This document shows positions 1,383 through 41,110 of a stretch of DNA of 41,705 bases, in pieces (positions within the stretch are counted from its first letter, which is position 1; every line of letters begins with the position of its first letter). The position numbers were made by a program, and so were the translations under genes. The DNA is from Parasteatoda tepidariorum (Eukaryota). The stretch covers positions 2,654,579-2,696,283 of the forward strand of contig NC_092214.1 in assembly GCF_043381705.1 (NCBI RefSeq). Direction: 5' to 3'. Under the pieces are notes generated by a model. The model ran no database searches. It was not told the DNA's origin and worked only from the letters and a program-made list of their open reading frames with translations.

Positions 1383-1415
1383 CACTATCTAGCCATTAAT
1401 GACCGGACACCCCTT
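1383..1415. repeat. Left terminal inverted repeat of the Tc1 element.
   Basis: Pairs as a reverse complement with 2580-2612 at 32 of 33 positions. Confidence 0.85.
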
Positions 1416-1424
1416 GAGCGGCAG

Positions 1425-2549: not shown

Positions 2550-2579
2550 CTTGATACTAGCACCTCATGTATCCGAAAT

Positions 2580-2612
2580 GAGGGGTGTCCGGTCATTAAT
2601 GGGTAGATAGTG
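2580..2612. repeat. Right terminal inverted repeat of the Tc1 element.
   Basis: ggggtgtccggtcattaatgggtagatagtg is the reverse complement of the left TIR with a single mismatch. Confidence 0.85.
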
Positions 2613-3544: not shown

Positions 3545-3700
3545 TGCGCCTGCATAATATAGATGTAAAACTTAATCGTCTCAGAACTGGCCACACTCGA
3601 CTCTCCCATCTTCATCTGTTGTTCGGAGAATCTCCTCCCTAATGTAACACTTGTAACATTTTACTTACTGTTCATCACATTTTAACCATTAGTCCTTGTT
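3545..3700 (+). pseudogene. 3' terminal fragment of a non-LTR (jockey/CR1-like) retrotransposon ORF2. It carries the C-terminal RLRTGH...HLH...C..C...H..H.L..CP cysteine/histidine motif and is interrupted by a stop.
   Basis: Translates to LNRLRTGHTRLSHLHLLFGESPP*CNTCNILLTVHHILTISPCF. This is the conserved tail motif of arthropod jockey-like reverse transcriptases, recognised from memory. Confidence 0.45.
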
Positions 3701-6432: not shown

Positions 6433-6563
6433 TTATATCAAAGTAATTTAAACTTTTAATATGAATAAAGTCATTATACTCAAATAAACGTCCATATAAG
6501 AAGCGGATGAAAATGAAAGCATATATAATATAAAAATGCAAAAAAGAAAGCAATATTAGGAAA

Positions 6564-9185: not shown

Positions 9186-10143
9186 GTGAATCAAGAATGA
9201 ATTCTTCATTGAATAGGAGAATGTTCAAGACAACTCATAGGCGCCATAATTTCTGCATCTATAATTGTATTACAATTACATTTCATTTTCTGTTCTTCAC
9301 TTCTTCTCAGACATTTGTGATGAGGTTGTCAAATTTTAATTCTCATGTTTTAAATAAGCTATTTTTGTTATAACTGTTTTTTAGACTGCTATAAAAAATA
9401 AACTGTTTTTTAGTGATTTGTTTAAACCACATGCATCTTGTACAATGTGTTTCATTACATTGAATATGTAAGTAAAGTTTTAATTATGGACAAAACTAGG
9501 GGGAAACAATTCTATTTATTAGAAATGAAAAAGTGTAAAAAATTCACTGGCTTGTAATCTACATAACATTAAGCATAATGATAGAGTTCAATGAACAAAG
9601 GGAAGAAGAAAATACCAGCTAGAACTAGTGCAGTTTTGAGTTGCCAGTATATATACAATTCCTACTATGAGATATATCATTTGCCTATTTGCATTTAGGC
9701 GGTAGGGCAAAAAGAATACTTGTCCTTTCTGTGCTTTACTTGCACAGAATTTTTATTTCAATCTATGAAACTTTTTAAGGTCTTCTCTTTTCAGTTATCT
9801 TAATTGATGAATTTAAAATTTTTACCTTATTTCGAGTAAACAATATTAAGTAAACATTTATTATTTATTGTGTTATATTTATGGATCGAAAGATTTCAAT
9901 ACATTTTTTGGACATGTACTGTTTCTACATATTTAGAGTATAGATTTTATGGTAGGAGTATATTCAATTTTCCAATCTTATCATGTGTAGTGCTACATGA
10001 TGAAAAACATGAAATAGTACCCTTTTGCATAAGCACAAGCTGCAAAATATACAATTTTGAGAAATATATTTGTTTTGTTCTTTTTAAGGGGGGCGGGGAG
10101 GCTTTTCAATTTTCATATTTTTTTTTATTTTTTTTGCTTTTAG

Positions 10144-10450
10144 CATACTACTACTCTATTTGTGACCCTGATAATAATGCGAAATTTACAACTCGTTCTG
10201 GCTATGCATTTAGAGGATTACTTTCTCATTTATTCAATGGAAGGTGTACTCCAGAACTTGCTTCTTTGTTGTGTAATCTTCAATTTCTAGAAGCTTGTTT
10301 TTATGTGGATTGTGGCGAAATTCTTCAGGAGTATTATCTAAACATTTTAGAAGAAAAACAGAGAGGGAGGCGAGATACAAAAGAAATAGATTTTGACGTA
10401 TTAGAATCTTACAAAAATTTTGTTTGTCGTAATCTGCATATTTTAAACAG
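10144..10450 (+). CDS. Host gene exon of 307 bp reading ...YYYSICDPDNNAKFTTRSGYAFRGLLSHLFNGRCTPELASLLCNLQFLEACFYVDCGEILQEYYLNILEEKQRGRRDTKEIDFDVLESYKNFVCRNLHILNR.
   Basis: A long pyrimidine tract plus AG at 10142-10143, and a perfect donor CAG|GTAAGT at 10451. The ~100-codon open frame is of non-repetitive composition. Confidence 0.5.
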
Positions 10451-12207
10451 GTAAGTTTATAATTATATATTTTAAGGCTAATTAATTAATTACTAGGCAT
10501 TATTTAAATTTAAACAATAATAAACCATTTACTATTATTAATTATATATTTCAGACACATTATTAACATTTAAATGAAATTATTTTAATTTTACTAATAT
10601 TTTTAACAGGATTACTAATTTTCTGATGTAATCTTTTCAATATGAAAAGGAGCTTTATTTTTTATGTTTTTTCTCTTTATTTTTTAAAAATATTTTAATT
10701 TTTAAGAAAGTGTATTTATAACTTCTGGTGATTATGTGGAAAGTTAATGTGTGCGAGCTATTAACACTTAAATCAATTTTTTTCTAGCCAACCACAGCAG
10801 AGACTTTATTTACAGTATTATGTCATCTCAAAATCCGTTCATTATTATTGTTTGTTTTCAATCATTATTTTGTAACTAATTTTATGTAAAGAGCATGGAA
10901 AAGTACACATATTTAAAATTTAATTTATTTGCCACATTATAAAAGTACAATATATATATAATTTAATTTTCTAAGCTGTATTCAGCTTCGCACAATAATG
11001 TTTAATATCTGTGTCTCTCAGACTTGATTGCAATGAATTAATATGCGTGTAATACAATACACAGAGATGACACAAAGTTAGACTGGTGGGTAAAACTTTT
11101 TCCTTTATATAAAGCAATAAATTAGATAAAAAAAATTCTAACAATAGTAACAAAACACCAGTAGGTAAATTTTAATAGTAGAAAAATATGACGAAATTGT
11201 AATTCAACATTTTCTTCCCAAGTTCTAGGTAAAATAAGTGATTCTGTTGATATCTTTTCTTCTCCCTGGTTGTTCAGATAACATTAATTCATTGCCAAAA
11301 TATAACTTATTATAATAAACATGGAAAGATCACTTAAATACTTGAGTTTACAAATCTCAAAAGAAAAAAACAAACAATTCCAAACAATGTGTAACAACTA
11401 GTTGACTTTTTAAATCGAAAGTTACTACATGGCATTTTTGTAACTTTGAAAAAAAAGTTTGATGAAATTCCAAACCACTAACCATGTGACAAATCACAAT
11501 TGAAAACGGACAACAATATGCATTTTAATAAAATATGGCAGCAGTATATAAGTTTATAAAATCTCTAAAATATTATTAATTGTAATGTTATAAAAATAAA
11601 TCAAAGTAGGAAGAAAGATAGTCTGAAGCAGTAAATAGAAGCTTGTTTGGAAATAGAAGACATCTGACTGTTCCTGATTGTTTGTAAAGTCATTCTACCT
11701 GTAGAACTTGAAAATTGTGGATATTTTGAGGCCCTCGATGCCTCAGGTATACAAACAGACCTATTACGTTCTGGTAAATAATTAACTAATAATTAGTAAA
11801 TTCTAGTAAATGATTAGTTAGCTAATAAATAATTTTTTTAATTAACCTTTTAAATACAAAGTTACTTTAGTTAAAACTAAAATGTTTGCAAGTTTATTAC
11901 AAACTAAGTCATTATTTAACTAAGTAACAAGCAATCTTAGTTAATTCCTGAGTTAGATATTTGGTTACCTAGCAATTTGTTGTTTCTTTGTAACTAAAAT
12001 AAAGCTATTAAGTAAATGGGTATTTTACTTATTAATTTTTAAATTAGTAACTAAAAAACTAACTAACTTTAAAAATCACTGATTACTGAATAAGCAGTAT
12101 TGAAATTTAAGTATTCAAGTAACTATTCGTTTTTTATTTATTTTTAGACTGCAGTTGCTTTTATATTGTTGTTATTTTGTGAATACACGCATATAGGTAT
12201 AGATATG

Positions 12208-13113
12208 CAGGGTGTTTATAAAGTCCCGAACCCATTTTGATGTTTAATAACTCATAAAATAATAAAGATAGATTAAAATTAATAACATAAATGGTTAGAT
12301 AGACTCAAAAAGTTTCATGACCCTTGTCAATGAACTTCCACGTGTGCCCCCTTCATCACAAGGAGAATATCAAGTCGATAGTCAATTTCATGCCAGGTAG
12401 CGGCAAGCATGTCGGCATCCACAGAGGCTATTGCTGTTGTAATTATGGCTTTTAGGTCATCAATGTTCAACACGATCCTCCTGTAAACATTGTCCTTTAT
12501 AAATCCCCAAAGAAAAAGTTCAGCGGCTTTATATCAGGTGATCTGGATGGCCAAGAAATTGGACCTCCTCGCCTACAGAAAAGACGGTCTCATCAGTCAT
12601 ACACTTAGACACGGTGGAAAACTTCGTTTTTCCACAACTAGAAGAGCTTCAGCCACATGTCTTTTTGCAACAAGATAGTGCACCATCTCATTGGGGTATC
12701 ATCGTTCGTAGTTCTTTGGATGACCATTTTCTAGGAAGATGGATTGGGCGAGGAGGTCCAATTCCTTGGCCACCCAGATCACCTGATATAACGCCGCTGG
12801 ACTTTTTTCTTTGGGGATTTATAAAGGACAATGTTTACAGGAGGATCGTGTCGCACATTGATGACCTAAAAACCAGAATTACAACCGCAATAGCCTCTGT
12901 GGATGCCGACATGCTTGCCGCTACCTGGCGTGAAATTGACTATCAACTTGATATTCTCCATGCGATGAAGGGGGCACACGTGGAAGTTCATTGACAAGGG
13001 TCATGAAACTTTTTGAGTCTATCTAACCATTTATGTTATTAATTTTAATCTATCTTTATTATTTTATGAGTTATTAAACATCAAAATGGGTCCGGGACTT
13101 TATACACACCCTG
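12208..13113 (+). mobile_element. Foldback (near-palindromic) derivative of a mariner/Tc1-superfamily element. Two inverted arms of ~390 bp each (12208-~12600 and ~12710-13113) are built from the 3' end of the transposase gene plus the TIR. Only a ~100-bp unique centre separates them.
   Basis: Terminal 30 bp cagggtgtttataaagtcccgaaccc pairs with the reverse complement of gggtccgggactttatacacaccctg. Internal arm segments (e.g. 12393-12421 against 12900-12928, and 12478-12573 against 12749-12845) are reverse complements at roughly 90-95% identity. Confidence 0.75.
12614..12994 (+). pseudogene. C-terminal transposase fragment of the foldback element (Tc1/mariner superfamily), containing the 2nd and 3rd catalytic-region motifs.
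   Basis: Reads FLQQDSAPSHW ... GRGGPIPWPPRSPDITPLDFFLWGFIKDNVY. The QQDxAPxH and PPRSPDxTPLDFFLWG motifs resemble those of insect mariner-like transposases, from memory. The N-terminal two thirds of the gene are absent. Confidence 0.7.
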
Positions 13114-14778
13114 TATATTTAATAAATCAAATAAGAATTCAAAGCTACAATCAAAAGAAAAAATAGCTGCTAAATCACCAATTTCTTTGAGGTACTAATC
13201 TGGGTTATCAAATTAGAAGTTAAAATGGGTTAAGTATCAATATAAAATTTTCCATTCTAATTATTTTGTTTTAAGTACCTTTTAGCACTATCAGTTTTTC
13301 AATGAAATTTAACTTATACATCCTTTAAATGAAAATATTCTACTAAACTTACTTACATATACTGTACTATGCGTAGTAAATCTCAAACTTGTATATGGTT
13401 TAATAGAGTAAAAAAATTAAATCTAATTTGTTCATTATTTTCATTTTCTATCGATATGTACTACTAGAAGGAGTTATTTCCTCATTTGTGTTCTGATCAA
13501 TGGTCTTACGAAATCTTAGGCATAAATGCATGAAAAAAAGATAGCTCTTCAGACTTTATATACTTACCAATTTAATCATTATCTCAAAGTCACATATTTT
13601 TCAAAAATATAATAGTATAAAAAATAAAAAACAAAAATAAATATAATTGTTAGTTTAATTTTAAATAATTCCATAGTGAAAATCCCTGTAGTGTTTTCTG
13701 TTAAAGTTATCTCTATAATACTCATACAAAACAAATTGTGGGCTAATTGATGAGACTGTAGTGGAAAATGTAGCTGTGGGAAACAAATTACAGGGTAACC
13801 AAAAAAATAATGGAGGTGTTAGTGATTGTGCAAATTTTTGCTTTTTAATTCAAGTTTTTTTACTATCAGAATGTTTGCTTTCTTAGTTTTATATAAGACA
13901 GTTTTACGTTTTGAAAAGAAACCATGTACATTCTAACTTTAGATTTCTCAGGCCATATACATTCTAATTTTTTATTTTGAGATATTGCATTGAAAATATA
14001 ATGAATAATAACGATGAAAAGAATACAACTGACATATAAAATTTTTTTTCAGTTTTATCAGTCTTTAGAAAAAATTCATTTAATAACTGAATACCCTATT
14101 GGGAATAATCTAACAAAATGCATTTCTCCATTTTATAATTCTTGATAAAATAAAAAAAAAATGAGCTGACAATATTTTTTAGTTTTCAAAAATTTCTGGG
14201 AGATTAAAAAAACTGGGTAGAACAATCGCATTCACCAAACATTTATTGAAAAGAAAGTGAATTTATGTCTGAAATTTTGGTGATACATGACTTGAAAGTC
14301 GGTAGTCATAATGATAAGTTTTTTGCTGTTTGTATATTTTATCAAGAACTTTTATAGTTTTGGCTATTTTTATAGTTTTTTTTAATTTTCTGTATTTTTT
14401 ATCACAATTCCTTTAACTTATCTCTCTCTTTTATGAAAAATCTGAAAATTAATCTAACATTAGTGTTAAAATCAACTTTGTGGCTTTTAGTGAGATTCTA
14501 ATGAATTTTGTGTCATAGATTGAAAAGTAGTTTTAACATGTTAATTTCTAAACATCTTTAAAAAAATATTTATTAATTCTGCAGTTTAATCTGAAATTAT
14601 TACATCTTTCGAAACATAACATTATTGATTTAAATAGAGTTTTAAATTGTGTAAATATGCTTTTGTTTATAAGAATTATAATTAAATATTATTTATATTA
14701 TCAGAATTTCTGCACAAATATTTAACCCAATATCTTCTGTTATATTTGCTTATGAACTAGTTTGCTTTATTATTTCAG

Positions 14779-17637: not shown

Positions 17638-18435
17638 TCAATAGCACTTTCGATAGCTTTTAATCCATCTGTATGTGAAAATATATCGATTTTCATCCTC
17701 ACTGTCTTCATCACTAGATTCCTTTTCCTTATTCACAGTATTGATGATCATTTCATCCGTAATTTCTTGTTGTTCGTCAGCATTTATCCAGTCACGTATA
17801 TCCTCTTCGTTTATTGGCTCAGCTAGTGGCAGTTTAATGACTAAATCCAAAAGCTCATCACTACATTCATTGGACTTTCCGTGATGTTCTGTACTCTGTG
17901 TATCAATAATTTTCCTCAACAACTTTTTTATGGTGTCTGATTTTACTTCATCCCATGCCTCAGCTATCCAGTAGACAGCATCCTTTACATTTAAACTTTT
18001 AATTGTCTCAGGAACACTTTTATTTTCCTCAATTCCTTCAATAAGAAATTTTAGTAATTTCTTTCGATAATTTCTCTTCATGTTCTCCAAAACACCTTGA
18101 TCTAAAGGCTGAATAAGTGATGTGACATTGGGCGGCAAAAAAAGAACTTTAATGTTGCCACTCGCCAATTCATCATCATTCGGATGACATGGAGCATTGT
18201 CAAGCATTAATATTGCTTTCCTTGGAAGATTTTGATTTTTTAAGAATGTCTCTACGTTAGGAACGAATTCATCAAAAAACCATTTTTTGAGCAAATCCGC
18301 ATCCATCCAAGAACTTTTTTGATTTTTGTAATACACTGGTAAACTTGGAATATGAATGTTCTTAAATGCTCTAGGTTTTTTCGACTTGCCAATCAACATT
18401 ATCTTAGTTTTAGGTTTCCAGATGCATTCAAACAT
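17638..18435 (-). pseudogene. pogo/Tigger DDE_1 catalytic domain and C-terminal tail (265 aa), which ends in an acidic stretch.
   Basis: Reads LDNAPCHPNDDELASGNIKVLFLPPNVTSLIQPLDQGVLENMKRNYRKKLL, the hallmark DDE_1 motif of pogo/Tigger/CENP-B-like proteins. This frame overlaps the upstream ORF 18399-18587, which indicates a frameshift. Confidence 0.8.
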
Positions 18436-18540
18436 GCTAATATTGTTACCCTTTCTTTACTTATCTTGTACCCCGGAGCTGACCTTTCATTCTTTGCCGC
18501 AAGAGTTTTTGAAGGCAACATTCTAAAGTTAAGTCCTGTT

Positions 18541-18831
18541 TCATCGCAATTGAAAAGTTTCTCCATTTTCAGATTTTTTTTTTGCAATGAGATTTTTAAA
18601 ACTTTCTTTGAATTTAATCACCTCCTCACAGTCAACTGATAATTTTTCTCCCGATATATTTAATTGACGAATTCCATATCTCTTTTTCCAACAATCCAAC
18701 CATCCACTTCTAGCAGTGAAATCTTCTCCAGCATAAAGAAGTTTATTAAAGTCCAATGCTTTTGCTTGTAGCATAAGCCCTGATATGGGACTTCCCTTTT
18801 CTCTCAATTTCGGATGTTTTTTCAAATTCAC
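18541..18831 (-). pseudogene. pogo transposase second HTH (HTH_Tnp_Tc5 / CENP-B-like) segment. It is in a different frame from the neighbouring pieces.
   Basis: Reads FTARSGWLDCWKKRYGIRQLNISGEKLSVD, matching the conserved F.AS.GWL..FK.RHGI motif of pogo/Tigger transposases. Confidence 0.7.
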
Positions 18832-18877
18832 ACTTTTTCATTATTTTTCGTAAACTGCAATTAGCCTTTTCTGCACT

Positions 18878-19144
18878 TCATATTTCTATTTCATTTCTCT
18901 TCCTTTTCCAGTCGCCAACAGTAACAGCTCCTACTCCGAGAACTCTCGCTACTTTCCTTATTGATTCACCTTTATCTAATCTTTGAATTGCTTCTAATTT
19001 TGTTTCTAAAGAAGCAACAACTCGCTTTCTCTTTTTGCTACTCATTTCGAATCTGTAGAATTGACTGAATGTAGCCACTGTACTTTTTCCCGCAAAACAA
19101 TTTCCCGATTCCAGGGAGGGAATCATGTGACCAGTCGAAACCAT
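18878..19144 (-). pseudogene. pogo transposase N-terminal psq/CENP-B-type HTH segment (MSSKKRKRVVASLETKLEAIQRLDKGESIRKVARVLGVGAVTVGDWKRKRNEIE).
   Basis: Shows the classic CENPB-N/psq helix-turn-helix pattern (K.R..L....K...I...E.G.S...VA...GV...TV..W.K.R). Confidence 0.75.
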
Positions 19145-21995
19145 TTGGTAGTAAGGGGGGATGGGTCATTTGACTAGACAACGAAAACAATTCAGCATAC
19201 TCTCTTTCGTTTCATGCTTCTCTTTTTGAACCCTGAAACTGAGAAGAAGACCAGCCCTCATAGGCCCCCATGTAAACCTGTTCCGGAGGCAACGGTTACC
19301 TCCATCAAGGTGGGGAAGTATTGCTAGGAAAACAACCTGCCTCCTTACAGAGGGTCCCTCCGTCCTTACCCCGTAAGCAACCCCATTCCTCTCCGCTAAT
19401 GTAAACAGATAATAAAAAGTGACTCAAACCCCGTCTGCTTTTGTTCTTTACAGACTTCTATGGTTTTGAAAAAGGTTTGCTTATTAAGCAAGGAAAATAT
19501 TCACTTGTGACGAATTCATTAAAAGATAAATATAATTTATTATTTTAACTTAGGTGTATAATTTAAACAGATATCCGTCACTTAAAGATGTCACTTTAAA
19601 GATGGCGAAAAATTTGTTGTTAAACAAGTTTAGAGACGCTATGATGGATGAAAGATCTGCGCATGCGTCAGCTCAAAAAACCTTGGTGCGTTTCTTGTCA
19701 TACAGAGTGACATTGCTGGCCCTTGCTACGTATAGGAGAAGCTAGCTGAGTGTCGCAATATTCTTCTTTCAAAAGATGGGGAGGGGTGGAGCGGTGCGTG
19801 ATACAATGCAAAGTAAGCGGAGTAGTGCTGATGGATTTTGTTTTCCTGAGTGTTTGTGAGATCAAGTTCAGAATTTTTTTCGGTAGTTTAAAAAAGTAGG
19901 AAATGTAGAAGCAAAGCCAAAAAAAAAACTTACAGATATTTGACAGCTTGGTTAAAGTGGAGACTCGGATAATCGGGGCTCGGATAACCGGGGTTTTACT
20001 GTTACTGTTTTTCTTATACTTGGAGGAAAACTAATTTTAAATTAACTCTAACAAAAATTAATTTTCTTGTTCTCAGAGGAAAATTAATTAATTTTAAAGT
20101 ACCTTTAAAAAGTTTCAAAGAGAAATATAACAAATTTTTTTAATATCTGAAATTACTTGTTAATAATTTTTTTTTTACTAGTTATGTATTTTTTTTCAGA
20201 ATCGACAATTAAAATTATGAGTTAATGCAAATTTAAATAAATGTAAGCTCAAATTTCCTAATATATCATTATTTATTTATGCGATGAATAATCATAAAGC
20301 CTTTTGTAAATGAAACAATAAGTAAATATTTTTTTTAAAGTTTCAAACCATTGGAGATTTCCAAAAATTGGGCCTACTATTTTTAATGCTGTCTTATGTA
20401 TAGCCTTTTTGTTAAAAGAAATGTTCTTGTTATGTTCACAAAGAATACCTGAATCTCTGACATAAACCTCATTGTAACTTATGATATCATTACTTAATCT
20501 TAGATGAATTGATTATGCAGTTTGTTAGGCAAAACAGGAATCCAACTTATGTGATAAACTATTTTATTGGTGAATCACAGCGTTTCTTAAATTATAACTA
20601 ATAAAAAATTTTAATAAGAGAAATTCAGTCTCCGAAAAAAACACATTAGAATTAATTGTGGCTAAAAGTTTTTAAACAATTGTTGTTCTGGAAATATTAA
20701 TCTTAACCTTGCTATAAGTATTAAAATTATGTTTTTTAGCCGTTCTTATGACGCCTACTTAAAATATTTTAATAAACTTATGTCAAAAGTAGTCTTATAC
20801 ATTATTGGCAATCAAAATGGGCTACAGGTGGCATAGAGCAGAATTCTCTACCTATGGCAACCCTTAGTATGCTTTCACCATTAGCGTGTGGAGAGTCATA
20901 TGAGAAAAAAACGTGTTAGTTTCTGTCTTGATTTTCAAATAGGTTAAAAACTTTTAAGTTAGGAACTATATGGAACTGAAAACTACATTCAACATGGATC
21001 TAAAATGAAAACATGGAAATTTTAAAAAAATAATTTTGACAGGTAAAAACGAAAAACATTAGGAAACGGAAAAATATCGTAGTACATTTCTATACAACTG
21101 AAAAGAGAAGGAAAGGGAAGGGGAGGATCAATACATGGAACCAGTCTTCTCCCCAGATAGCTTATTCAAGCATTGCGATCGTGAATATTTTACTATAAAT
21201 TTGTGTATTCAACTCTTATATAAAACAAATGTAACTCATTTTTCTCACAAATTATAATATATCTTCAAATTTGATGTAAATTTAATGCAAAGTAATGTTT
21301 TAATTTCTTTCTGTTTTTTTTAATATCTGTTGCACTGTTTTGTATTGGATAGAGAATCAATTTTAAATGCTATATTTTTAACTATATTGGTAAATGCATG
21401 AAACTTAATCGTTTGATTTCTTTACTTACAAGTTATATAAAAACCAGACACTGTATTTAAGGGGAAAATTATAGACAATAAATTAGCAGCATTTATTTGT
21501 TATTAATGGCATTAATTTTTTGTTTGTTTGTTTTATACTCTCACAGTAATTTCTTTAGTGTAATTTGCTATAATATGGATCAGAAAGCATAATAATAATT
21601 CATAAAAATCTATATAATGTATAGATTTGTTTTGAAATTGTTGCATGATTGAAATGAAAATGCTAGGCCATGCTTGACATCTTAATATTTAATTTCTTTG
21701 TTTATTTCTTGTTGTTAGTCATATTACTCTCAATTGTAATTACCTTTTCATGTCTGTTTTATTCCTTACTGTATAACGTGTATCTGGCTTATAAATCTAT
21801 TTATCTTAATTTTCTACGAAAAAAATATATCTTATTAGAATGTGAAATTTGGTGTTTTCCTTTTACTTTGACAACTTGGTTTCAAATTTTAAAGTTAGTT
21901 TAATATTGTTTTTATCTGTGTGACAAGATAATCAATATTTCCTAAAAATATTTTTCATTCATCATTATACTATTTTAAATAATGTTTGTATTTAG

Positions 21996-22120
21996 GTCAT
22001 ACGAAATCTCAAAAGCCACACATCAGCCATAACATTTGTTTGTTTTGGTGGAAAAAGTAGAATCTGCACAGCCTCAAATGATACAACCTTAAATATTTGG
22101 AGTAGTGAAGATTACAGTTT
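21996..22120 (+). CDS. Host gene exon encoding a WD40 repeat (VIRNLKSHTSAITFVCFGGKSRICTASNDTTLNIWSSEDYS).
   Basis: Acceptor tgtatttAG at 21994-21995 and donor TTT|GTATGT at 22121. The SH...I......G..I.T.S.D.T..IW pattern is a WD40 repeat. Confidence 0.55.
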
Positions 22121-22342
22121 GTATGTTACATTTTGAATTAGTTTAAAAGAAAATCGTAATTTCTAATTTTTTTCCTTTTGAATATTATGTAATGATACTT
22201 TCTTATTTAAACATAAAAATGTACTAACCTATTTCCTATTATGTTTACACAGAGAAAGTTTATTTATAAGTAAATTGTTTAAAACTTCACTATATATCTT
22301 AAATTAAATAAATATAATTGATTTGCATATGTATGAATAAAC

Positions 22343-26392: not shown

Positions 26393-26929
26393 ATTTTGCA
26401 TTTGTTTATCTTCTTTACTTTCTCTACCATCATTTGGTCTTTAGACGCTGAGGACGGCTCTTGTTTATAGAACTGAAACTGTAATATGTCCATTTATGTA
26501 CTTTAATTTGTGCTTTATTTTCGTTAGGAACAGATTTTTTATTGAATATACATTTACAATCTATTAATGATGTTATTTAGTCAATTATTATAAAAAATTT
26601 TAACTGCAGTTATAAATAAATTTTTAATGCAATTAGCAAATGGATTTGGGTCATAAATAACTCTCTAGCTTTGCATTGTTTACGTAATTCTTTCTAATTT
26701 TATGATAAAGCATTTCCTTGTAAATAAAGAGAGTTACTAATTTAATGATTGTGTTGCACACTGCAGTTTTATAGCAAAATATGAGAAGTCTTCATGGATT
26801 TTTTTAAAAATATTTTTTGTTTTGCATTTTTTAATTTATTAACTATAAAAAAAATTTGAATATCATGAATTTGCTCTGCAAAATTAAACAATCTGATATT
26901 AGAAGCTTATTTATACTGTACATTGTGGC

Positions 26930-27065
26930 GCAACTACCACTACAAATATTAAATACTGAATCACTAGTATATAAGACATGTTAACTTGATTCCATTTTGA
27001 GGTGCCTTTTGATAGATGAAAGTGGCCATAGCCGATAAATCCCCTCATACATTCTATAATGTTTG
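26930..27065. repeat. Copy of a dispersed repeat that is also present at ~41005-41110.
   Basis: Shares the ~60-bp core cactagtatataagacatgttaac(t/c)(t/c)gattc.at.ttg.gg.gcct.t.atagatga with the other copy. Confidence 0.5.
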
Positions 27066-27500: not shown

Positions 27501-29767
27501 CCTTACTTCTTCATTTCATAACTTCAGAAATGTATGAAATGACTTTTAATACTGACATAAATTTATTAAAACTATCTCATTGCATGAATTTGTTTTAAGA
27601 TCAGTGCATTAAAAGCTTCTTTTTATGCAAATATCTAAGTGAAAGTATAATATTAAGTCTTTCACTGTCACTGTTTTCTCTGCACTAAGAGCTAACAATT
27701 TTCATGGATTCGTATATTAATTACAAGATGCATTTTAAGACATTTATGTAGTTTTCATGTCATAATTCTCCTGTCTTTTTCTTCATTTTTTCACTGTTTT
27801 ACAAATTTATTACCAGCTATGGCTGAAATAAAATATGCTATCATTAGTATCTTCAGTACATATGTTTCATTGTTTTTTATTTTATATCTTTGCATTGTGG
27901 CCGATTGTGACAATTTCAAGCATTTCAGTTTTGTCTTGGATAATTTCAATGGGGCTATTTAAAACTGTAATTTCAAAGCTTGTTTTATTACAATGGTTTC
28001 AGACATAACTTTGTACTATTTTGGATTGAATATGTATTGTTTTCTTATGAATAGTTATAAATAAATTTAAAAATTTGGCTCGATGATCACTGTTCCTGTA
28101 AATTTCTACACTAAATCTCTCAATCTAAACTTGTCAATTCCTGTTGCATAGCATGCATCAATCTTTAGTTTTCTTATTAATCTTTATTAAACCTGTGCTA
28201 GGTAACGTACATAAAAATAGCTCTTAAGTATAACGCTATTCACTTCTTTTTCTTCCAAGTTCAATCAAGAACTTAAAATTATTAAAATTGACACTTTATA
28301 TACACTATGATTTTGCATAATAATTCAAAAAATTTTCCAAAGATCAATAATGTAAAAAATATACAATACATATGTATACAAAAATATACAATACATATTT
28401 AAGTCGATATGATGATTGTATTAAATTAACAATTCGTAATAATGAAGGAAATTTTAACAGGATGTGCTATTCACTTATTTACATAAGTTATATGATTTAA
28501 TCATGCCTTCTCTGCTTTGTTTACTACATCTTTTAATCATAGTTAAGTGTTAAGGTAATATACAAAACAGAGATTTTTTAAATTTTTGGCATTAAAGATG
28601 AGTTAAGAATTATTCTTTTCTTGGTTACTCTTCTGAGTTCCATCCCTCAATGCAATTTCATTTTTTTTATTCAATAAATTAGTAGTAAAATATTTCGTTT
28701 TTTTCTTCCCCTTTTTTTATTGTTTTAATAATTTTAAAGATGTCTATTCTGATGTCTAAAGCTTAACAAATTGTCTTAATCATTGATTATTATCATTATC
28801 AAATTATTTTAATCATTGACATTAGTATTTTAAATCAATGATTTTATTTATTTAAAAAATAAGATTATTTAAATCGCTAGTTTTGATCTTTTAGACTTGT
28901 TTTGTTGACGATGACTTGTTGAATTTACTTTCCATTTCATTTTTTAAAAAGGATTTTATTTCATCTTAGAAAGTAATTCAGTTTATATAATGTTATAATT
29001 ATATTTATTTATTTATTTGTATTAAAATAATTGATTTTTATTAAACATAAATTTCGTTTTCATAATTTTTTACTTCCTTGGACTTTTATGCAAATTGACC
29101 TGGAAAACTAGCAATAGTCAGGAAAACACTTTTTCCTTCTTAAATATGAACCCTCTATATATTATGACTGTTAAGAATTCATGCTAGTCAAAGATGATTT
29201 ACTCCTCTATAAAATACGGTAGATATGAAACTGTTTACTTATACTTCTTTCTCTTTTTCAGGTAAGTTACAGCCCTATATAAAATGTCATTTTGATTGCA
29301 CAAGTTACTTTTTCCAAGATTTCTTATTTTCCTTCTTCAAATTATTTTTTAAAGGAAAATAATGAACTTTCCCTTTTATTGCTCTATTTTCATTAATTGA
29401 ACACAAACTTTTAAAATTCTAAATATTATTAACTTGCAATGTTTCTGTTGAATATTTCTTAATTTATTTATTTCTATAGCTCATATTTTCACACCCTTTT
29501 CATTATCCCATAAATATAGTGCCAAGTGCCCTTTTATAGAGGCGAGTACAGAAGGTCCCTATTCAAGGGTTGACACCAATAGAATTGTCCCTCAAATAAA
29601 AGTTTTCCTATTGGAAGCTACAACTGTATAAGCTTATTATTATTAATGCTGAAAAATTGCCTTTGGCTATACCTTAAATCTCTGAATTTTCCTTTTCATA
29701 CTTAGATAACACAAAGCTGTATGAAAAGTTATCGACTAATAAAAATTCTATATTTGTCATATTTCAG

Positions 29768-29914
29768 AATTTCTGTGTTGAAGGGTCACAGGCAAAGTGT
29801 TACTTGTTGCTGTGCTGATCCAACAGGAGGAGTGTTACTGTCTTCCAGTTGGGACAATACTGTTCGCCTGTGGAGTTTACTTGATGGGAGATCAATATCC
29901 ACCATTGATTTTAG
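29768..29914 (+). CDS. Host gene exon encoding a WD40 repeat (ISVLKGHRQSVTCCCADPTGGVLLSSSWDNTVRLWSLLDGRSISTIDFR).
   Basis: Acceptor catatttcAG at 29766-29767 and donor TTAG|GTTTGT at 29915. GH..V.......G..L.S.S.D.TVRLW is the textbook WD40 signature. Confidence 0.65.
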
Positions 29915-30098
29915 GTTTGTTCAATATTCACTCAAATATTTGAATTTATTTTTTCAAAATATAAGCTGAAGGAATTGTTTCAAGCTATAAAATTAAGTTA
30001 CGAAATTTAGCTTTTCTAATTAGCACCCAGAGATGCCAATGAGAGTGTTTCCCCCCACATACAATATTTAAAAATGTTGTGAAATTACAATTTATTAA

Positions 30099-33000
30099 CC
30101 CTCCTGGCGGCAAGCCTGTTATAACACGGGCATGATTTCTATGCTGAAAGCGGCTTGCCCGTGTATGCACGGGTTCACGTTCTAGGTCTAGAGCGGCGAT
30201 CACGTCTTTTTCTGAACTAGAATATTTCCTTCCCCCTCAACCTCCTACTGCTCACAAATTGAGAGACGTATAAGCTGTCATCGTAAATCACCCACTGTTG
30301 TGCTAGAATATTTCTGTTTGAATAGATGTGAATAGTTTGCGTTCTTTTTCATGTTTGAACCCCAATCAAACCAAAAGTTTGCCTGTAAGAAACAGATTAC
30401 ATTTTTATTTTCTCCAACACTTTCGAAATATTGAATTTTGTTTTAAAAAATATATTCATTGCTTAATTTATTATACTAAATCTATGAATAAATAAAATCG
30501 TTTCGTATTTTTAAATTTCAATTAATTTTCGAAAAAGCATTTTTCATTTTAGAGTAAATTGCAGGAAATTATTTTTTGTCTAAACAAATGCAATATTTAA
30601 TGAACTAATTAATGAATTTTTAATATTACTAATTTTCCATAGTATTTAACTAATTTATTTAAATTAGTTAATTTTTTTAAGTATTATGTTGCTTACAAAA
30701 AATTAAAAAAATTTTTATCTGGCAAATGAAGTTAACTCTTAAAACACTCTTTCCTCTTTCTGTAATGTTAAAGACTTTCTCGGCATTTTTCTAAAAATCC
30801 CATCACTCAAAACACTAGTTTTATTTGTACTTTAGTTAAATGATATTAAAGCATTTTCATGGATAGAGAAAAAATCGAAATTCGTCTCATTAGTAAATAC
30901 ATTTCTCATTCATGTGAATGTATAAGTAAATATTTCAGTAATGATAAATAAATTTAATGATAAACTCAAATTTCCTTAATAAATAATAATAAAAAAATGT
31001 ACAAGCTGTTAAAACTCCAAATAACTAAGTGAGTTATAATAAACTAAATATTTTTTTCAAGTCCACAAAATAAATGTAAATATTTTATTCCACTCAAATA
31101 CATTTTAAATATACATACATTTAGATATACATTTTAAAGAAAACGATTTTTTTTAAAAGTATAACTGATTATATTTAAAATATTTAAGTAATCGTTGTGA
31201 AAATTCCAGTAACTAAAATAAAATATTAAAATCATTGCACATTTTATATACTTTAATTGTTGGAACACTTGCAAACAAGATTTTTTTTCTTTCAAAAAGA
31301 TGTTTTATTTTTAATTAAATTCATCATTAATTTGATTCAAAGTACAATTTTTTCTATAATATCATTCGAAATCCAAATAAAAGTGTGTGTAAACTCAAGG
31401 GTGTAAGCTCGAGTTGTGTTGTAATTATCATGTTTGTAAATTTTCCGGAAACCTGGAAAGTAATAACGCTTCGGCGCATTGAATATTCGATAGTCTTAAA
31501 AATCCCTTTTTTTACGATCCGGAATCGAAGGGTTGTTGATAACGAGGGTGAATACATTTTTGATAAAAAATAAAATCTTGGTAACAAATATCAAGTACAT
31601 CGAAATGACATTTCTTTCAGATCTCCCTAATATTTCACGAATTTAAAAGTTGTTCAATCCAGATGGTCGGAAACAACCAACGTAAGTATTACAGTACTGA
31701 CATTCGTACTAAAATATGCATCGATTGATTGTCTGAAATCTAAAGTAGATGATTACATGATGTTTTTGTTAAGTTATTAAAATAGTTTTCAGAAGTTCAA
31801 TTTGAAATGGGGGTGTGCAAAGCGATAAACAAACCCTTATTGTGATGTAAATATAATCTAGACAATACTTATCATACTAGTGTCCAGATATCATACTAGT
31901 GTCCATACGAGTTATCATACAGTTTCATCTAAAGGTCACGTTTTCTTTTCTGTTCATGGTCAAAAATACTGTAAAAGGTGATCTAAAAAACTGGGCGTAT
32001 AGTACTAAAAGTGTATTGCACAAGTTAGAGAAATGCAAAATGTAGAGAAGATTTGTAACTATATTTTCTGCAATTCAATTAAAGTCTAAACTTCGACTGT
32101 AAAAAAAAAACTTAAAATAAGAGCTTAAATAAACTTAAAACAAAAAATAAGAATAAAAGTAAGCTAGAATTAAAAATAAAACATAAATGAACTTAAATAA
32201 AGTACACGACAATTCTGCGAACTTAACAAGTAAAATAATCGAAGTAATGGCTAAAATTTATGATTAAAAGTCACGGAAAATAAAATTCAATAACACTGCA
32301 ACAAAATATCCATTTTGCTTCATCAGTAATCTTTCGATGCATATTGTATGCAGAATTTGCTTTTGGAATAAAAATTAACTCGCTACTTGAATAAAAAGTT
32401 TTAAAAATATTTGGGAACTAAAATGGAAGGCATTACATTATTTTGATTCTTTGGAATTGTATATTTTTGAATTTGTAAATGACGTTATAAACGAATTTAT
32501 AAAACATAATCCAACAAATCATATGTTTAAAAAAAAGCGATAGCAAGTTTTTGTGCCCAACCACAATCTCAATTTCATTCATAATCCACACAATTCATAA
32601 ATATATTGCTATTTATTATAAATACAATATTTTTAAAATATTACTCTTATGAATAGTAAATATGACTATTAAGGGATACAAGTTTTATTATTCTAAATAT
32701 ATTTTACCCCATATAAATTAAAATCACGGATAACATAACTTAATGTTAGTGTTCATTATTAATTATTATAAGAATAATTTTCTTTTAAAAAAAATTTTTA
32801 ATTTAATTTTTCTAGAAAATAAAAAGTTGTTATGACCTTTAATTTATTGATATTTGACCGAAGTAATGCAGAAAATTTTACTTTCCTTATTTCAATAAAT
32901 TTTTCTGCTTATGTTACATAGGTTCTTTGATTTTTTACTGCTAAGCTGCGCACTATAAAAAGTAAAAAAAAAAAACAAAGAAAAAATCCTATATTTATTT

Positions 33001-34703
33001 TATATGCTATTTTCCAATTTTAAAAAAAAAAAATTATTATTTTTTTTAAAAAGCATTTTTGATGTTATTTTATTGCTATACAAAAGGTGTGCATAATCAT
33101 AGTACCTTTTCTTATGTCAAAGCATTTTTATGTCATAACCATTAATTCTAATTCTTGTCAGTTTGTTTCGATGAAGAAGAAACGCAGAACAACGTTTTTT
33201 TCTACTAACAGATAGGGAGAGAAAGTGATGAAGTCCTTTTAACACATTTTTTCAATTTTTCAGGAACTATATTATATAAGCCGAAAACAATTATTGTTGT
33301 TTGTTATTTACCATTGTGTTTATTAGTCGCCATTTTTTACTAGTGTGGAATAGCTGATTCCGTGGAGCAACATGGTGCAAAGAGATGAATTAAAAAAAAA
33401 AAAAAAAGATATTAAATATTTTAAACCAATACTACCGAAAATTTTTGTATAACTACATTTATTTTTGTATATTTAAATTCTGTTACTTCCACGTGATTTT
33501 TTTTCCAAATATATATCATTGCATGATCTATATTGGTAAAATCATTCCTTTGAATTTAACAGCAATGGACAAAACTACAAAGAATCATTATATTTACTTG
33601 TAAAATAATATTCTTGCAACAATTCCTGTACTGATATTTATTCTTTGTATGTAAAATTTCATAAGGTTACGAATTTTTTTAAGCTTTATTATTGATAATA
33701 CCCCATAAAATAAGATAAGAAAATTCACAATAAAAAATGCAGTTTTGCTTAACTAGTGTATATATAAAAATTTATATTTTTAGTCAATTCTATAAAGTGT
33801 AATATGAACAGCTTTTACTTAAATATTTAAAAGACGAATTAAGAATAAATTATCCAAATAACTAGAAATTCAATACGAGCACTATTTAAAGAGTATTAAC
33901 GCACATTAAAAAGTTTTAAGTATGTTTTTAACAATATTCCATCTTTAGAACAGCAGCATCTGCGAAAGCTTTTTTTTTTACTTAATTTCAAAGAAAAAGA
34001 GAAATAAAACAGGAATTAAATAAATAATATCTATTAAACAGCAGTTATTTTTCTAATCGAACATTATTGAAAAAATACTCATTAATTATTTTTTTAAATT
34101 TAGAAATATCAATAATATACTTAAAAGATAAATATGACTTTTTACTAGCTTGTATATTAACAAAATTGTACTTTGAATTCGGAAATGAGGCAATTTAAAA
34201 TGCACACGCAGTTTTAAAATAAAAAACTTAGGCGGTAGCCGCAAATGTATCTGGGAAATAAAAGAAATCACAGGAAACAGGAAGGAAAAATTATCAATCA
34301 CAAGAATCTATTCAGCTCCAATTCATTGAACACTCCTTTGATGTTATATTTCAACTATATCATTGTGAAAAAGCTAAGGACAAGAAAGAATGTAACATAA
34401 CCTGAAAGTAATTATCTTATCAGAACGAAAGAATTGATTGATATTTCAGAGAAAAGTGTAAGATTGTATGAAGTTCAACAACAACTTTCAGAAAAGTGAA
34501 TCACGAAACACAATTCATCCATCAAACTGTCTTGACCCTCCTTGACCACCTAGACCGATAATCACCCCTTTTTACCACAAATTGAAGCAGAAGGGGGAAA
34601 GCATACGTTTTGTCCGACCCTCGACACTTTTGGTAGCATCTTTCTAAAATGTGTCTGCCGCTTGAAGTAAGAAACTAAGAGAGAGGGGAAACGCCAGGAG
34701 GGT
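30099..34703. mobile_element. Putative non-autonomous piggyBac-like element (~4.6 kb). It has 11-bp perfect TIRs (ccctcctggcg / cgccaggaggg) and TTAA flanks at 30095-30098 and 34704-34707.
   Basis: piggyBac-superfamily elements insert at TTAA and have TIRs beginning CCC...GGG. Both termini are locally GC-rich (30099-30360 and 34480-34703) against an AT-rich interior. No transposase ORF is present. A 15-bp inverted match could arise by chance, hence the moderate confidence. Confidence 0.45.
31925..32170. repeat. Copy of a dispersed ~230-bp repeat family, with a second copy at 39330-39545.
   Basis: aagttagagaaatgcaaaatgtagagaagatttgtaactatattttctgcaattc matches aagttagagaaatgtgaaatgtcgagaagatttgtcactatattttctgcaattc at ~90%. 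Upstream similarity also exists (tcaaaaatact.t.aaag.tgatctaaaa). Confidence 0.65.
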
Positions 34704-34851
34704 TAAGTAAAATTGTTTAAAATTTTTCAACACTAATGCATCAACATGATTGTCAGGATGGTATTCATAACTTTGAGTTATTTATTGGCCATGGTGGACA
34801 TAATCATTTCAAATCTTATTAAACCAATTATCAGACATTAAAATCCATATC

Positions 34852-36098
34852 CAGTGGTACCTCGAGATACGAGTGCCCTAACATACGAGTTATTTGAGAT
34901 ACGAGCTGTCGAGCAAGCAAAGTTTTGCTTTGAGATATGAGGAACGGCCATGCAAGCCCTTCTCGTCCTCGGCAATGCTCCTGCTCACCCACCAAGTCTC
35001 GAACAGGACATCCTCGAAGATTTCACGTTTATAAAGTCACGTATATACCACCTAACACCATTCCTATCCTGCAGCTCATGGATCAGCAGGTGATTTCTAA
35101 TTTTAAAAAGCTGTACAGTAAGCACCTGTTCTGGCACTGCTTTGAGGTGACAGAGAACACAAACCTCACCCTTCAAGAGTACTGGAAGGACGACTTTAAC
35201 ATCGTGATGTGCCTCAAAATTATTGATCAGGCCTGGCTGAGTGTTACAACGAGGACCTTGACCTATGCATGGAAAAAGCTGTGGTCTGTAGCTGAAAATT
35301 GTGCTGTCGCCTGAGTCTGTAGCTTCGAAGGATTCGAACCCGAAGTGCCAGTGGAGGTGGAAATAGTGTCTCTTGGAAAATCCATGAACCTGGTGATGGG
35401 TGAGAGAGATGTGAACGAGCTCGCCGAGGAACACTCTCAGGAACTGACGACCAAGGAATTACAAGAGTTACAGTCGCAGCAGCATTCAGGGGTTCTGCAA
35501 GAAATTGGTTTCGAGGAAGAGGTGGAGGAGGTTATCTCTACAAGTGAGATAAAAGAGTTCTTGGGAATGTGGGAGAGAATTTCACTGTTCGTGGAAAAGG
35601 AACACCCCGAAAAAGTTGCAACTGGTCGTACATCGGAGCTATTCAATGACACTTGCCTAACTCATTTCTGCAGCATTCTAAAAAGGAGGGGAAAAAAACC
35701 TCCTTCGACAGTTTTTTTTTATCCGGCTAAAAAAGCAAAAACCAGTGAAGAGAAAAGCAGTCACTAAAATTAAGCATACAGTAGCATTTAAGTTGTGTGT
35801 AAGTTGCATTTAAGTGACCAAAATACAAATATGTATGTACACTTTGTAAAACCAGTTTTTTTTTTTTTGCTTTAAATTTTCTTTTATTATGCTTTTATAC
35901 AATATTTGTCATTTATAAATACATTTTTCTTATCCAAAAACACGTAACAAAAACAATTGGGGGTAGCATTTTTTGGGCTGGAACGGATTAATGGCATTTC
36001 TATTAATTTCAATTGGGAAAATTACTTTGAGATATGAGCAAATTGACATACGAGCTAGGTTACGGAAGGAATTAAACTCGTATCTCGAGGTATCACTG
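34852..36098 (+). mobile_element. Internally deleted Tigger/pogo-family element (~1.25 kb) with 23-bp TIRs (cagtggtacctcgagatacgagt, and cagtgatacctcgagatacgagt as reverse complement). A TA follows the 3' end.
   Basis: The TIRs match at 22 of 23 positions. Internally, the + strand ORFs 34937-35314 and 35345-35767 encode the distal part of a DDE_1 domain (IPPNTIPILQLMDQQVISNFKKLYSKH) and a Tigger-type acidic C-terminal region. Confidence 0.75.
34937..35767 (+). pseudogene. C-terminal third of a Tigger/pogo DDE_1 transposase, in two frames.
   Basis: PPNT.S.LQPMDQGVI..FK..Y-like motif, followed by a Glu-rich tail (EEVEEVISTSEIKEFL). The N-terminal HTH and first catalytic residues are absent. 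Confidence 0.7.
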
Positions 36099-36432
36099 TA
36101 TTCATATATAATATTTTAGAAAAGTTTCTGGCTAAAAGCTTAAGAAGTTGGACGCTTTTAGCACCAATTATGTTTGTATTGTCACCTGAAACTTTTACCT
36201 CTAGAAAATCATATCAACTAATCATTACTATTAAGAATTTAACATTTTCTTACCTAATCTATGATGATCAGTTGATCACACTTGCTAAAAAGATTACCCC
36301 ACATTATATCATCAAAATCAGAGATATATACAATTTTTAATAGTAAAAAGTATTTTTTTTTTCGCTTTAATTGTTTATAGATTTTAATTTAGTTTTCTAT
36401 AATTTTTTTAAGTAAGCAATTTGAAATTTTCA

Positions 36433-36542
36433 GATGCCCAGTGAATTGTATTGATCATCACCCATATAAGCAACAAGTTACTTGTGGTTTGTGGAACAGC
36501 TGCATTGAAGTGTGGGATACAGTTAGTCTAAAGAAAGTATTT
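36433..36542 (+). CDS. Host gene exon encoding a WD40 repeat segment (CPVNCIDHHPYKQQVTCGLWNSCIEVWDTVSLKKVF).
   Basis: Acceptor gaaattttcAG at 36431-36432 and donor TT|GTAAGT at 36543. IEVWD is a WD-repeat terminus. Confidence 0.55.
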
Positions 36543-39329: not shown

Positions 39330-39545
39330 GCACGATTTCAATCATTATCAAAAATACTATTAAAGATGATCTAAAAGAAATTGTTATACTGTTGTAAACA
39401 AAATGTATTGCATAAGTTAGAGAAATGTGAAATGTCGAGAAGATTTGTCACTATATTTTCTGCAATTCTTTTGGAGTATTCCTCAACTGCAAGAAATTAT
39501 GAAATTTAAAAAAAAGCTTAAATAAACTTACCGAAGTAGAACTTA
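39330..39545. repeat. Second copy of the dispersed repeat seen at 31925-32170.
   Basis: ~90% identity over the ~55-bp core, with flanking similarity. Confidence 0.65.
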
Positions 39546-40349: not shown

Positions 40350-40469
40350 ACTGCTAAAAGTCATTGTGGCTCTGTTAAATCAATAGTTTATTCTTCTGAT
40401 GGTGTTAACATAATCTCTTCTTTTATTAATTCTGACATTGTCATTTGGTCTGCAGAAGAAGGGTTAAAG
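40350..40469 (+). CDS. Host gene exon encoding a WD40 repeat (TAKSHCGSVKSIVYSSDGVNIISSFINSDIVIWSAEEGLK).
   Basis: Acceptor tgtcttctAG at 40348-40349 and a perfect donor AAAG|GTAAGT at 40470. The H...V..I..S.DG..I.S...D..I.IW pattern is WD40. Confidence 0.6.
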
Positions 40470-41004
40470 GTAAGTATGTTTTTGTAATTGATTAACTAAT
40501 AGTACTTTTTTTAATATAGTATTTTTTTAATGTCATGTAAAAGAATTCTTGAGAATGTATTACAATTGTTCTCACTTACTTCCATATCGGATAATTTAAT
40601 AATCAGCTTATAAAAACAAAATTTAGTAAATTTATGTGAAACAAATTTTAAATGTTACTTCTTCACTAAATTGCATAATGAAGAGAAAAAATGATTTTCT
40701 TAAAGAAATGTTTTATTAGCTTGAGGGTAATTTTCCATTTTTCAGTTAGGAAAAAAATATTTTACGTAGTTATTTTAATGGGAGCTTATTCATTGTAGCT
40801 CCTAACAAGTGTCAGGGGGCAATTGAAGAATTAGAAGTCATATAGTAATCATGGGAGATTACCTTTCTTTGACCCTATTCACCATTTAACATTTTTTATT
40901 TAGTTATTTTCTGGGGGCCAATTTGTCAAAGCATTTTCCATTTCTACATGATTAAAAAAATTATATGTGAAAATTTACTTTATTGGTGTAGGGTATCTAC
41001 TACT

Positions 41005-41110
41005 ACAAAAATACAATTCCAATTCACTAGTATATAAGACATGTTAACTCGATTCTATGTTGGGGGGCCTTTATATAGATGAGTGTTGACATTGTCAATA
41101 ACTTCTCACC
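41005..41110. repeat. Second copy of the dispersed repeat seen at 26930-27065.
   Basis: Shares the cactagtatataagacatgttaac core. Confidence 0.5.

Follow-up and report, generated by a model that had tools for sequence, protein, structure and literature searches.

A candidate non-autonomous piggyBac-type transposon within a WD40-repeat gene intron of Parasteatoda tepidariorum

A stretch of 41,705 nucleotides from the genome of Parasteatoda tepidariorum (the window) was analysed for the presence of a transposable element, and the segment from 30099 to 34702 is probably a single non-autonomous piggyBac-type DNA transposon that was inserted at an intronic TTAA of a WD40-repeat gene. A preliminary description of the window had proposed a piggyBac interpretation, and most of its basis is retained here (the TTAA, the CCC...GGG ends, the GC-rich blocks edged by TTAAs and the lack of a transposase), but the two ends turned out to be alike over 11 bp only. 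This short repeat between otherwise dissimilar ends speaks against the piggyBac assignment, as does an interior with the composition of the host background, which could for that reason be ordinary intron between two unrelated fragments.

The candidate is located inside a 6.5-kb intron (29915-36433), and the concatenated exons of the gene match WD40 (PF00400) with an E-value of 4e-21. A homology search with these exons returned no homologue, and exact look-ups of three ORFs of the window gave no entry. The same intron contains a remnant of a Tigger element (table 1) with 22-bp terminal repeats (CAGTGGTACCTCGAGATACGAG and CTCGTATCTCGAGGTATCACTG), which explains the GC-rich DNA past the right end of the candidate. 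The window as a whole is AT-rich and dense in transposons, with at least five Tc1/mariner/pogo elements as the predominant kind. A Tc1 transposase encoded in the window displays 91% identity to a P. tepidariorum protein.

Table 1. Positions of the candidate element, its parts and the neighboring features within the window
Feature	Position	Strand	Evidence
Upstream WD40-repeat exon	29767-29914	+	Acceptor ...tttcag, donor gtttgt
Left TTAA, putative target-site duplication copy	30095-30098	.	Direct reading; within the exact 15-mer match
Left terminal inverted repeat CCCTCCTGGCG	30099-30109	+	Exact reverse complement of 34692-34702; starts with CCCTC
Left GC-rich subterminal block	30099-30300	+	GC profile, 49.5%; no Pfam or Rfam match
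AT-rich interior (~24% GC) without recognisable coding capacity; filler, captured DNA or later insertions possible	30301-34519	.	Pfam, ORF and similarity searches
Short dispersed repeat copy, probably a MITE or SINE	31954-32137	+	blastn, second copy at 39342-39530 in a downstream intron
Right GC-rich subterminal block	34520-34702	+	GC profile, 47%
Right terminal inverted repeat CGCCAGGAGGG; minus strand reads CCCTCCTGGCG	34692-34702	-	Direct reading
Right TTAA, putative target-site duplication copy	34703-34706	.	Direct reading; included in the exact 15-mer match
Internally deleted pogo/Tigger-like element, 145 bp right of the candidate	34852-36098	+	DDE_1 match, E = 1.8e-8
Next WD40 exon	36434-36542	+	Sequence and Pfam

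On direct reading of the sequence, TTAACCCTCCTGGCG occupies 30095-30109 and recurs as its exact reverse complement at 34692-34706. The TTAA-flanked, mirrored termini are therefore as exact as previously proposed, but the right one had been placed one base too far to the right (34693-34707). The TTAA is perfect on both sides and the ends of the candidate read 5'-CCC...GGG-3', each abutting a TTAA, in agreement with the earlier reading. The inverted match comprises exactly 11 bp plus the TTAA and stops both inward (GCAAGCC versus TTTCCCC) and outward. Beyond these 11 bp the left and right ends have nothing in common, as a local alignment between them scores 18 compared with a mean of 17.9 for shuffled sequences (250 of 500 shuffles score equally high or higher), and the subterminal repeats that such an alignment had been proposed to reveal are not common to the two ends. 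A blastn search (word size 7) with both 300-bp ends against the window returned the 15-nt inverted match alone. The window contains six TTAACCC sites, and the four sites besides the candidate ends share 7-11 of 15 positions with the 15-mer.

The second line of evidence is base composition. The left block (30099-30300) has a GC content of 49.5% and the right block (34520-34702) of 47.0%, compared with 24.2% in the interior (30400-34450) and 27% in the outside flanks. The outer edges of both blocks are sharp and coincide exactly with the TTAAs, and the GC content declines gradually at the inner edges. The GC-rich termini reported earlier are thus real and contrast with their AT-rich surroundings, but they are shorter (~200 bp) than the 250 bp assigned to them. 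The composition steps at both outer ends are what an insertion boundary looks like and are independent of the repeat match. Furthermore, the other GC-rich patches of the window that were examined (1500-2500, 12500-13000, and 34850-35770) each overlap a transposase-like ORF, which suggests that the GC-rich blocks may mark transposon-derived DNA.

Motif clusters within the blocks are local, each within one end only. Three CACGGG/CCCGTG motifs are clustered at 30125-30173 in the left block (CACGGG occurs four times in the whole window, three of them in this block), and a 12-bp direct repeat, CTAGAATATTTC, is present in the left end at 30217 and 30303. In the right block, the end motif recurs a third time in imperfect form (GACCCTCCTTG, 34534-34544) and in left-end orientation. 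Rfam scans (gathering and E-value thresholds) and a tRNA scan identified no relevant RNA gene in the GC-rich blocks, the predicted DNA folding of the ends is unremarkable (z = -1.28 and, for the right block, 0.13), and no direct repeat of at least 8 bp that might be the signature of a nested insertion was found at the inner edges, between 30230-30520 and 34330-34560.

The chance occurrence of such an end match was estimated from how often a perfect inverted repeat of 11 bp or more, flanked by TTAA, is found within 15 kb, based on 2000 Markov simulations and 3000 shuffles of 50-bp blocks that keep the composition locally. Any repeat of this kind was found in 26% of the Markov simulations and 35% of the block shuffles, nearly all of them AT-rich, and the real window contains another one at 28273/28737. 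A version that starts with CCC appeared in one of the 2000 Markov simulations and in none of the 3000 block shuffles, and a version with at least six G/C among the 11 positions appeared in three and one, respectively. A match of the CCC type is thus rare by chance, with a probability of ~1e-3 or less per window.

These frequencies bear on the explanation that the GC-rich blocks are unrelated fragments (e.g., old transposon debris) within an AT-rich intron and that the 11-bp match arose by coincidence. The frequency of TTAA-flanked perfect repeats among the randomised windows and in the real one argues for a coincidence, as do the very high frequency of TTAA (650 sites in the window), the richness of both blocks in C/T and G/A runs (CCCCCTC, CCCTCC, GGGGGAAAG), which makes a match of the CCCTCC type likelier, and the lack of similarity past 11 bp and of a further copy within the window. 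In addition, the candidate was picked post hoc from many windows, and at ~3e-4 per window a genome of 1 Gb would contain several chance cases. On the other hand, the GC-rich version that starts with CCC is rare in the simulations, and both 15-mers are located exactly at the outer composition boundaries, which chance does not predict. A coincidence is considered unlikely on balance, while it is the most serious competitor of a single inserted element.

The additional motif copy in the right block bears on a different partition of the locus, in which the blocks belong to one family but not to one element. In this view, a self-contained miniature element of ~167 bp with the layout TTGA-CCCTCCTTG...CCAGGAGGG-TTAA would make up the right block (34536-34702). 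The left block would represent the solitary or truncated end of another family copy, and the 4.2 kb between them would be plain intron. The copy GACCCTCCTTG matches at 9 of 11 positions, is inverted relative to the right end and is preceded by TTGA. It is located near the inner edge of the right block, where the GC content per 40 nt increases from 0.30 (34460-34499) to 0.40 (34500-34539) and 0.47 (34540-34579), and the host-like composition of the interior agrees with plain intron. However, the signal of the third copy is weak (chance probability ~0.03-0.04 per block), the right block lacks the hairpin-like fold of a miniature element (z = 0.13 as above), and no separate partner for the left block is present in the window. 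Moreover, the left and right ends match each other at 11 of 11 positions, whereas within the repeat proper the putative internal partner reaches 8 of 11. This arrangement of two separate ends is therefore regarded as very improbable.

Other superfamilies of DNA transposons were compared with the candidate. Since TA is contained in TTAA, the flanks are compatible with a non-autonomous element from a superfamily that duplicates TA (Tc1/mariner/pogo), in which case the repeat would be the 12-bp ACCCTCCTGGCG and the outermost T and A would be incidental. Such elements share short terminal repeats with the candidate, their TA duplication fits the inner TA, they are the most abundant transposons of the window, and an extra outer T...A pair comes cheaply at 27% GC. 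Nevertheless, the candidate repeat would start with ACCC, unlike the Tc1-like and Tigger-like ends read in this window, which start with CAC... or CAGTG... (CACT- or CAGT-type) right after the flank; ACCCTCCTGGCG resembles no Tc1 or pogo end in the window, and the family does not need the full TTAA. CCC...GGG directly at a TTAA is a signature of piggyBac (PMC5381638, PMC10813416), and a TA-duplicating origin is accordingly given only a very small probability. Kolobok, the other superfamily that duplicates TTAA, is defined by 5'-RR...YY-3' termini (PMC9587614); the TTAA is present, but these termini are absent from the candidate, which has 5'-CC...GG-3' instead, and Kolobok was rejected. An origin as a hAT, Mutator, P or PIF/Harbinger element was also rejected, as the 8-9-bp flanks on the two sides of the candidate differ and a 3-bp TWA duplication does not fit as a direct repeat.

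A single element of the piggyBac type agrees with the candidate in several respects. piggyBac elements duplicate TTAA and carry terminal repeats of typically 12-19 bp, or 5-19 bp in structural group SG1 (PMC5381638), so that the 11-bp repeat of the candidate is one below the usual range and inside the observed one. Subterminal repeats are present in groups SG2-SG4 but not in SG1 and are hence not obligatory (PMC5381638); the candidate, with a short terminal repeat and no subterminal repeats common to its ends, resembles SG1. Its length of 4.6 kb is within the reported range of 1.2-9.5 kb (PMC5381638; PMC10813416) and also within the sizes of 1.7-8.5 kb given in PMC5381638. In addition to the TTAA on both sides and the 5'-CCC...GGG-3' ends, it shares the start of many listed types, CCCTC, which belongs to the four 5' motifs that recur in piggyBac terminal repeats (PMC10813416). 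Positions 5-6 of the repeat (CC), by contrast, are outside the motif C[C/A/T][C/A/T][T/G/A][T/A/G][T/G/A] of PMC5381638. The host is a theridiid spider, a group with several catalogued piggyBac types, including PiggyBac-7_Lhes, for which an 11/11 repeat is listed (PMC10813416). It also counts against the assignment that the 12 types listed for Parasteatoda and Latrodectus, which have low copy numbers (1-33), do not include one with a CCCTC start (PMC10813416). Unlike an autonomous piggyBac, the candidate contains neither a DDD transposase (Pfam DDE_Tnp_1_7) nor a remnant of one.

Non-autonomous derivatives and MITEs of piggyBac include MER75/MER85 in human and mPok in Daphnia, and at 4.6 kb the candidate is far bigger than typical piggyBac MITEs. 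A Pfam scan of all six frames of 30095-34706 identified no domain (best E-value 0.2, to an irrelevant family), which confirms that a transposase ORF is absent, as the preliminary description had noted; the candidate can thus only be a non-autonomous member. No piggyBac-like ORF was evident by eye among the long ORFs of the window, and selected ORFs outside 30095-34706 were scanned with Pfam. An ORF of 80 amino acids on the plus strand of the interior (31331-31570) has no relatives in an exhaustive HMMER search of 1.84 billion representative proteins, and the interior ORFs matched only the dispersed repeat when compared with the rest of the window (tblastn). This repeat had been placed at 31925-32170 and was recovered by blastn, with 77% identity over 192 bp between 31954-32137 and 39342-39530 (E = 1.5e-33). 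The GTAAGT donor described for the interior is present as well but at 31682-31687 rather than at 31684. A 17-bp perfect inverted repeat without a flanking duplication is found at 31335/34162.

The suggestion that the interior carries captured host or exon sequence gains no support from these searches, given the lack of a Pfam domain, an ORF without relatives and one short repeat as the sole similarity within the window. A large mobile element of the piggyBac type with a 4.2-kb host-derived interior between ends of ~200 bp, representing a CCCTC-type lineage uncatalogued in theridiids, would be the piggyBac analogue of sequence capture in the style of Pack-MULEs, and its existence is highly doubtful.

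Sequence collections were also screened. Exact scans of the JGI metagenome contigs with the right and left 22-mers returned no match, nor did a protein-proxy search in which every ORF piece across the two ends was used, but both are uninformative because the host genome is outside these collections. The same applies to host copies in an exact scan of the GTDB genomes with the left 22-mer (no match), as that collection is prokaryotic. A degenerate scan of viral contigs returned three matches with a similarity limited to 15-18 nt, as expected by chance, and a literature search for the repeat string retrieved unrelated primers only.

If the candidate is a piggyBac-type transposon, established piggyBac biology suggests how the present organization may have formed. 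A DDD transposase supplied by a different element of the genome would bind the terminal repeats and the subterminal DNA, and the element would be cut out at its flanking TTAAs and pasted into the intronic TTAA, which would be duplicated. Excision would restore a single TTAA (...CAATTTATTAAGTAAAATTG...), and an empty-site allele of the intron would be expected to read ...GTGAAATTACAATTTATTAAGTAAAATTGTTTAAAAT... with a single TTAA. The GC-rich blocks would represent the remains of the ends of a parent element, and the 4.2-kb AT-rich interior might have taken the place of the transposase gene as filler or captured DNA, or might include subsequent insertions, of which the repeat at 31954-32137 would be an example. 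There is no indication of a host function for this copy.

A TTAA-flanked, transposase-less element of the piggyBac type is an ordinary kind of genomic parasite. If real, the candidate would represent a further non-autonomous piggyBac-type family in an arachnid genome already rich in transposons, a finding that would be useful for repeat annotation and would leave existing concepts unchanged. Together with the neighboring Tigger remnant it could have swollen the intron from ~0.66 kb to 6.5 kb. The candidate would be of wider interest only if its interior turned out to be host DNA that had been mobilised, or if there were an autonomous, active partner with the same ends, given the value of piggyBac systems as genetic tools.

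The 4.6-kb TTAA-flanked stretch at 30095-34706 (the candidate) is probably a single non-autonomous piggyBac-type transposon that would have been mobilised by a DDD transposase acting in trans and inserted at a TTAA within an intron. Its ends form an exact inverted match of 11 bp plus the palindromic TTAA, with no extension inward or outward (see table). Both ends carry a GC-rich subterminal block (left 49.5% GC, right 47%), compared with 24% in the interior and 27% in the immediate outside flanks, and each block has a sharp outer edge at the TTAA position and an inner edge that fades gradually. The mirrored TTAA ends and GC-rich termini of the preliminary description were thereby confirmed after small coordinate corrections, the right 15-mer lying one base to the left of the proposed 34693-34707.

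Coordinates of the candidate and of other features in the window
Feature	Position	Strand	Remarks
Left 15-mer	30095-30109	+	TTAACCCTCCTGGCG; sequence read directly
Right 15-mer	34692-34706		exact reverse complement of TTAACCCTCCTGGCG; sequence read directly
Left GC-rich block	30099-30300
Right GC-rich block	34520-34702
CACGGG/CCCGTG cluster	30125-30173		three copies; left end
Third copy of end motif	34534-34544		imperfect; right block
17-bp perfect inverted repeat	31335-31351, 34162-34178		ATTCAAAGTACAATTTT; candidate interior
Dispersed repeat, first family	31954-32137, 39342-39530		~190 bp
Dispersed repeat, second family	26924-27038, 40987-41101
WD40-repeat exons	~21996-22133, 29767-29914, 36434-36542, 40350-40484	+	concatenated: PF00400, E = 4e-21
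ORF upstream of WD40 exons	9840-10451	+	204 aa
Tc1-like element	~1383-2615	+	apparently intact; 34-bp terminal repeats, uninterrupted transposase ORF
pogo/Tigger-like element	17638-19165	-	CENP-B_N, HTH_Tnp_Tc5 and DDE_1 over three ORF pieces
Tigger-like remnant	34852-36098	+	internally deleted; 22-bp terminal repeats, DDE_1 C-terminal fragment
318-bp inverted repeat	12200-12517, 12804-13121		96% identity
Mariner-like C-terminal ORF	12542-12991
Shorter similar ORF	12330-12533	-
Retroelement-like ORF fragments	3463-3639, 6534-9000	+

Beyond the 11-bp repeat the two ends have nothing in common (local alignment score 18, shuffle mean 17.9), and the shared subterminal repeats that the preliminary description proposed looking for were not found by this alignment. 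Each end has its own set of local motifs, and the third copy of the end motif in the right block has a chance probability of ~0.03-0.04. That the two ends come from separate members of one family, the right block perhaps being a 167-bp unit of its own, is considered highly improbable.

Whether unrelated GC-rich fragments could match by chance was evaluated by searching for TTAA-flanked perfect inverted repeats of at least 11 bp with arms within 15 kb. Such repeats are not rare in AT-rich sequence like that of the window: first-order Markov simulation produced them in 26% of runs and shuffling of 50-bp blocks in 35%, and a further, AT-rich pair is present in the window itself at 28273/28737. 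Against chance, 2000 Markov simulations yielded the CCC-starting version once and 3000 block shuffles never; for the version with at least six G/C in 11, the counts were 3 and 1. These estimates apply to a pattern picked post hoc after inspection of the sequence, with C/T-rich runs in both blocks raising the odds of CCCTCC-like matches and a few times 1e-4 per window amounting to a handful of chance cases per gigabase genome. Among the six TTAACCC sites in the window, the four outside the candidate ends lack any continuation of the end motif. Both 15-mers also fall on the outer composition boundaries, which is separate evidence for real insertion ends, and a chance match is judged unlikely.

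piggyBac-like elements (1.7 to 8.5 kb) duplicate TTAA and have terminal repeats with a conserved C-rich 5' end, typically of 12-19 bp, with a range of 5-19 bp in group SG1, whose members are devoid of subterminal repeats (PMC5381638); CACTA, CCCTC, CCCTT and CCCAT are recurrent 5' motifs (PMC10813416). The candidate agrees with these elements in its TTAA, CCC...GGG ends, CCCTC start and size, but its repeat is one base under the usual length and departs from the published motif at positions 5-6 (PMC5381638). None of the piggyBac types catalogued in Parasteatoda tepidariorum (five) and Latrodectus hesperus (seven), with copy numbers of 1-33, starts with CCCTC, and one has an 11/11 repeat (PMC10813416). 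Kolobok, the other TTAA-duplicating superfamily, was ruled out because its ends are 5'-RR...YY-3' (PMC9587614).

A six-frame Pfam scan of the candidate found zero domains and therefore no piggyBac transposase, as the preliminary description had stated, nor any transposase remnant, and no Rfam family or tRNA was found. The dispersed repeat described in the interior is present (77% identity) and is all that the interior shares with other parts of the window. The GTAAGT motif exists (31682-31687), but an exon there lacks any support: a search of 1.84 billion representative proteins gave no homologue for the 80-aa ORF next to it, and the suggestion of captured host or exon sequence as cargo is unsupported. 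The 17-bp inverted repeat, with arms 2.8 kb apart and no flanking duplication, may have arisen by chance or belong to an old nested element. Both dispersed repeat families (~77% identity between copies) are probably MITE- or SINE-like, and their copies lie in separate introns of the host WD40 gene.

End-specific 22-mers (metagenome and prokaryotic genome contigs) and a protein-proxy search with ORFs across the candidate ends gave no matches in collections that exclude the host genome, results that are uninformative rather than negative. Three viral-contig matches to a degenerate end pattern shared only 15-18 nt and were rejected as chance matches.

The second and third WD40 exons place the candidate within a 6.5-kb intron (29915-36433), of which only ~0.66 kb remains without the candidate and the Tigger remnant. 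The concatenated exons had no homologue in collections lacking the host genome, and look-ups of three ORFs from the window found no entry there. For the upstream ORF, Pfam gave a weak match to the APAF-1 helical domain that falls below the cut-off (E = 9e-4). The host gene is possibly Apaf-1-like, of the STAND/WD40 type, with transposon-filled introns of 4-11 kb.

The window (~29% GC) is dense with DNA transposons, including mariner-like fragments. The Tc1-like element (52% GC versus a 27% background; terminal repeats TACACTATCTA(G/C)CCATTAATGACCGGACACCCCT) encodes 343-374 aa with HTH_Tnp_Tc3_2 and DDE_3 domains; its best named relative is a P. tepidariorum protein (91% identity over half its length), with many further spider matches at 50-56%, which makes a theridiid spider the probable source of the window. 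The element may have been recently active. The pogo/Tigger-like element is frameshifted, its domains being split, and is probably dead. The Tigger remnant (CAGTG(G/A)TACCTCGAGATACGAG), 145 bp right of the candidate, accounts for GC-rich DNA continuing past the right end. A TA-duplicating element of Tc1/mariner type would imply an ACCC start, unlike the Tc1 and pogo ends in the window, and is given little credence as an identity for the candidate. The region 12200-13121 has the appearance of a mariner 3' end arranged as a foldback or duplicated in inverted orientation. The retroelement-like fragments, recognised by eye (RLRTGH-type motif, integrase-like tail), had no significant Pfam match.

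For the candidate, the ends are observed, and mobility and piggyBac membership are inferred; if real, it would add to an already well-known kind of element and be of modest interest.
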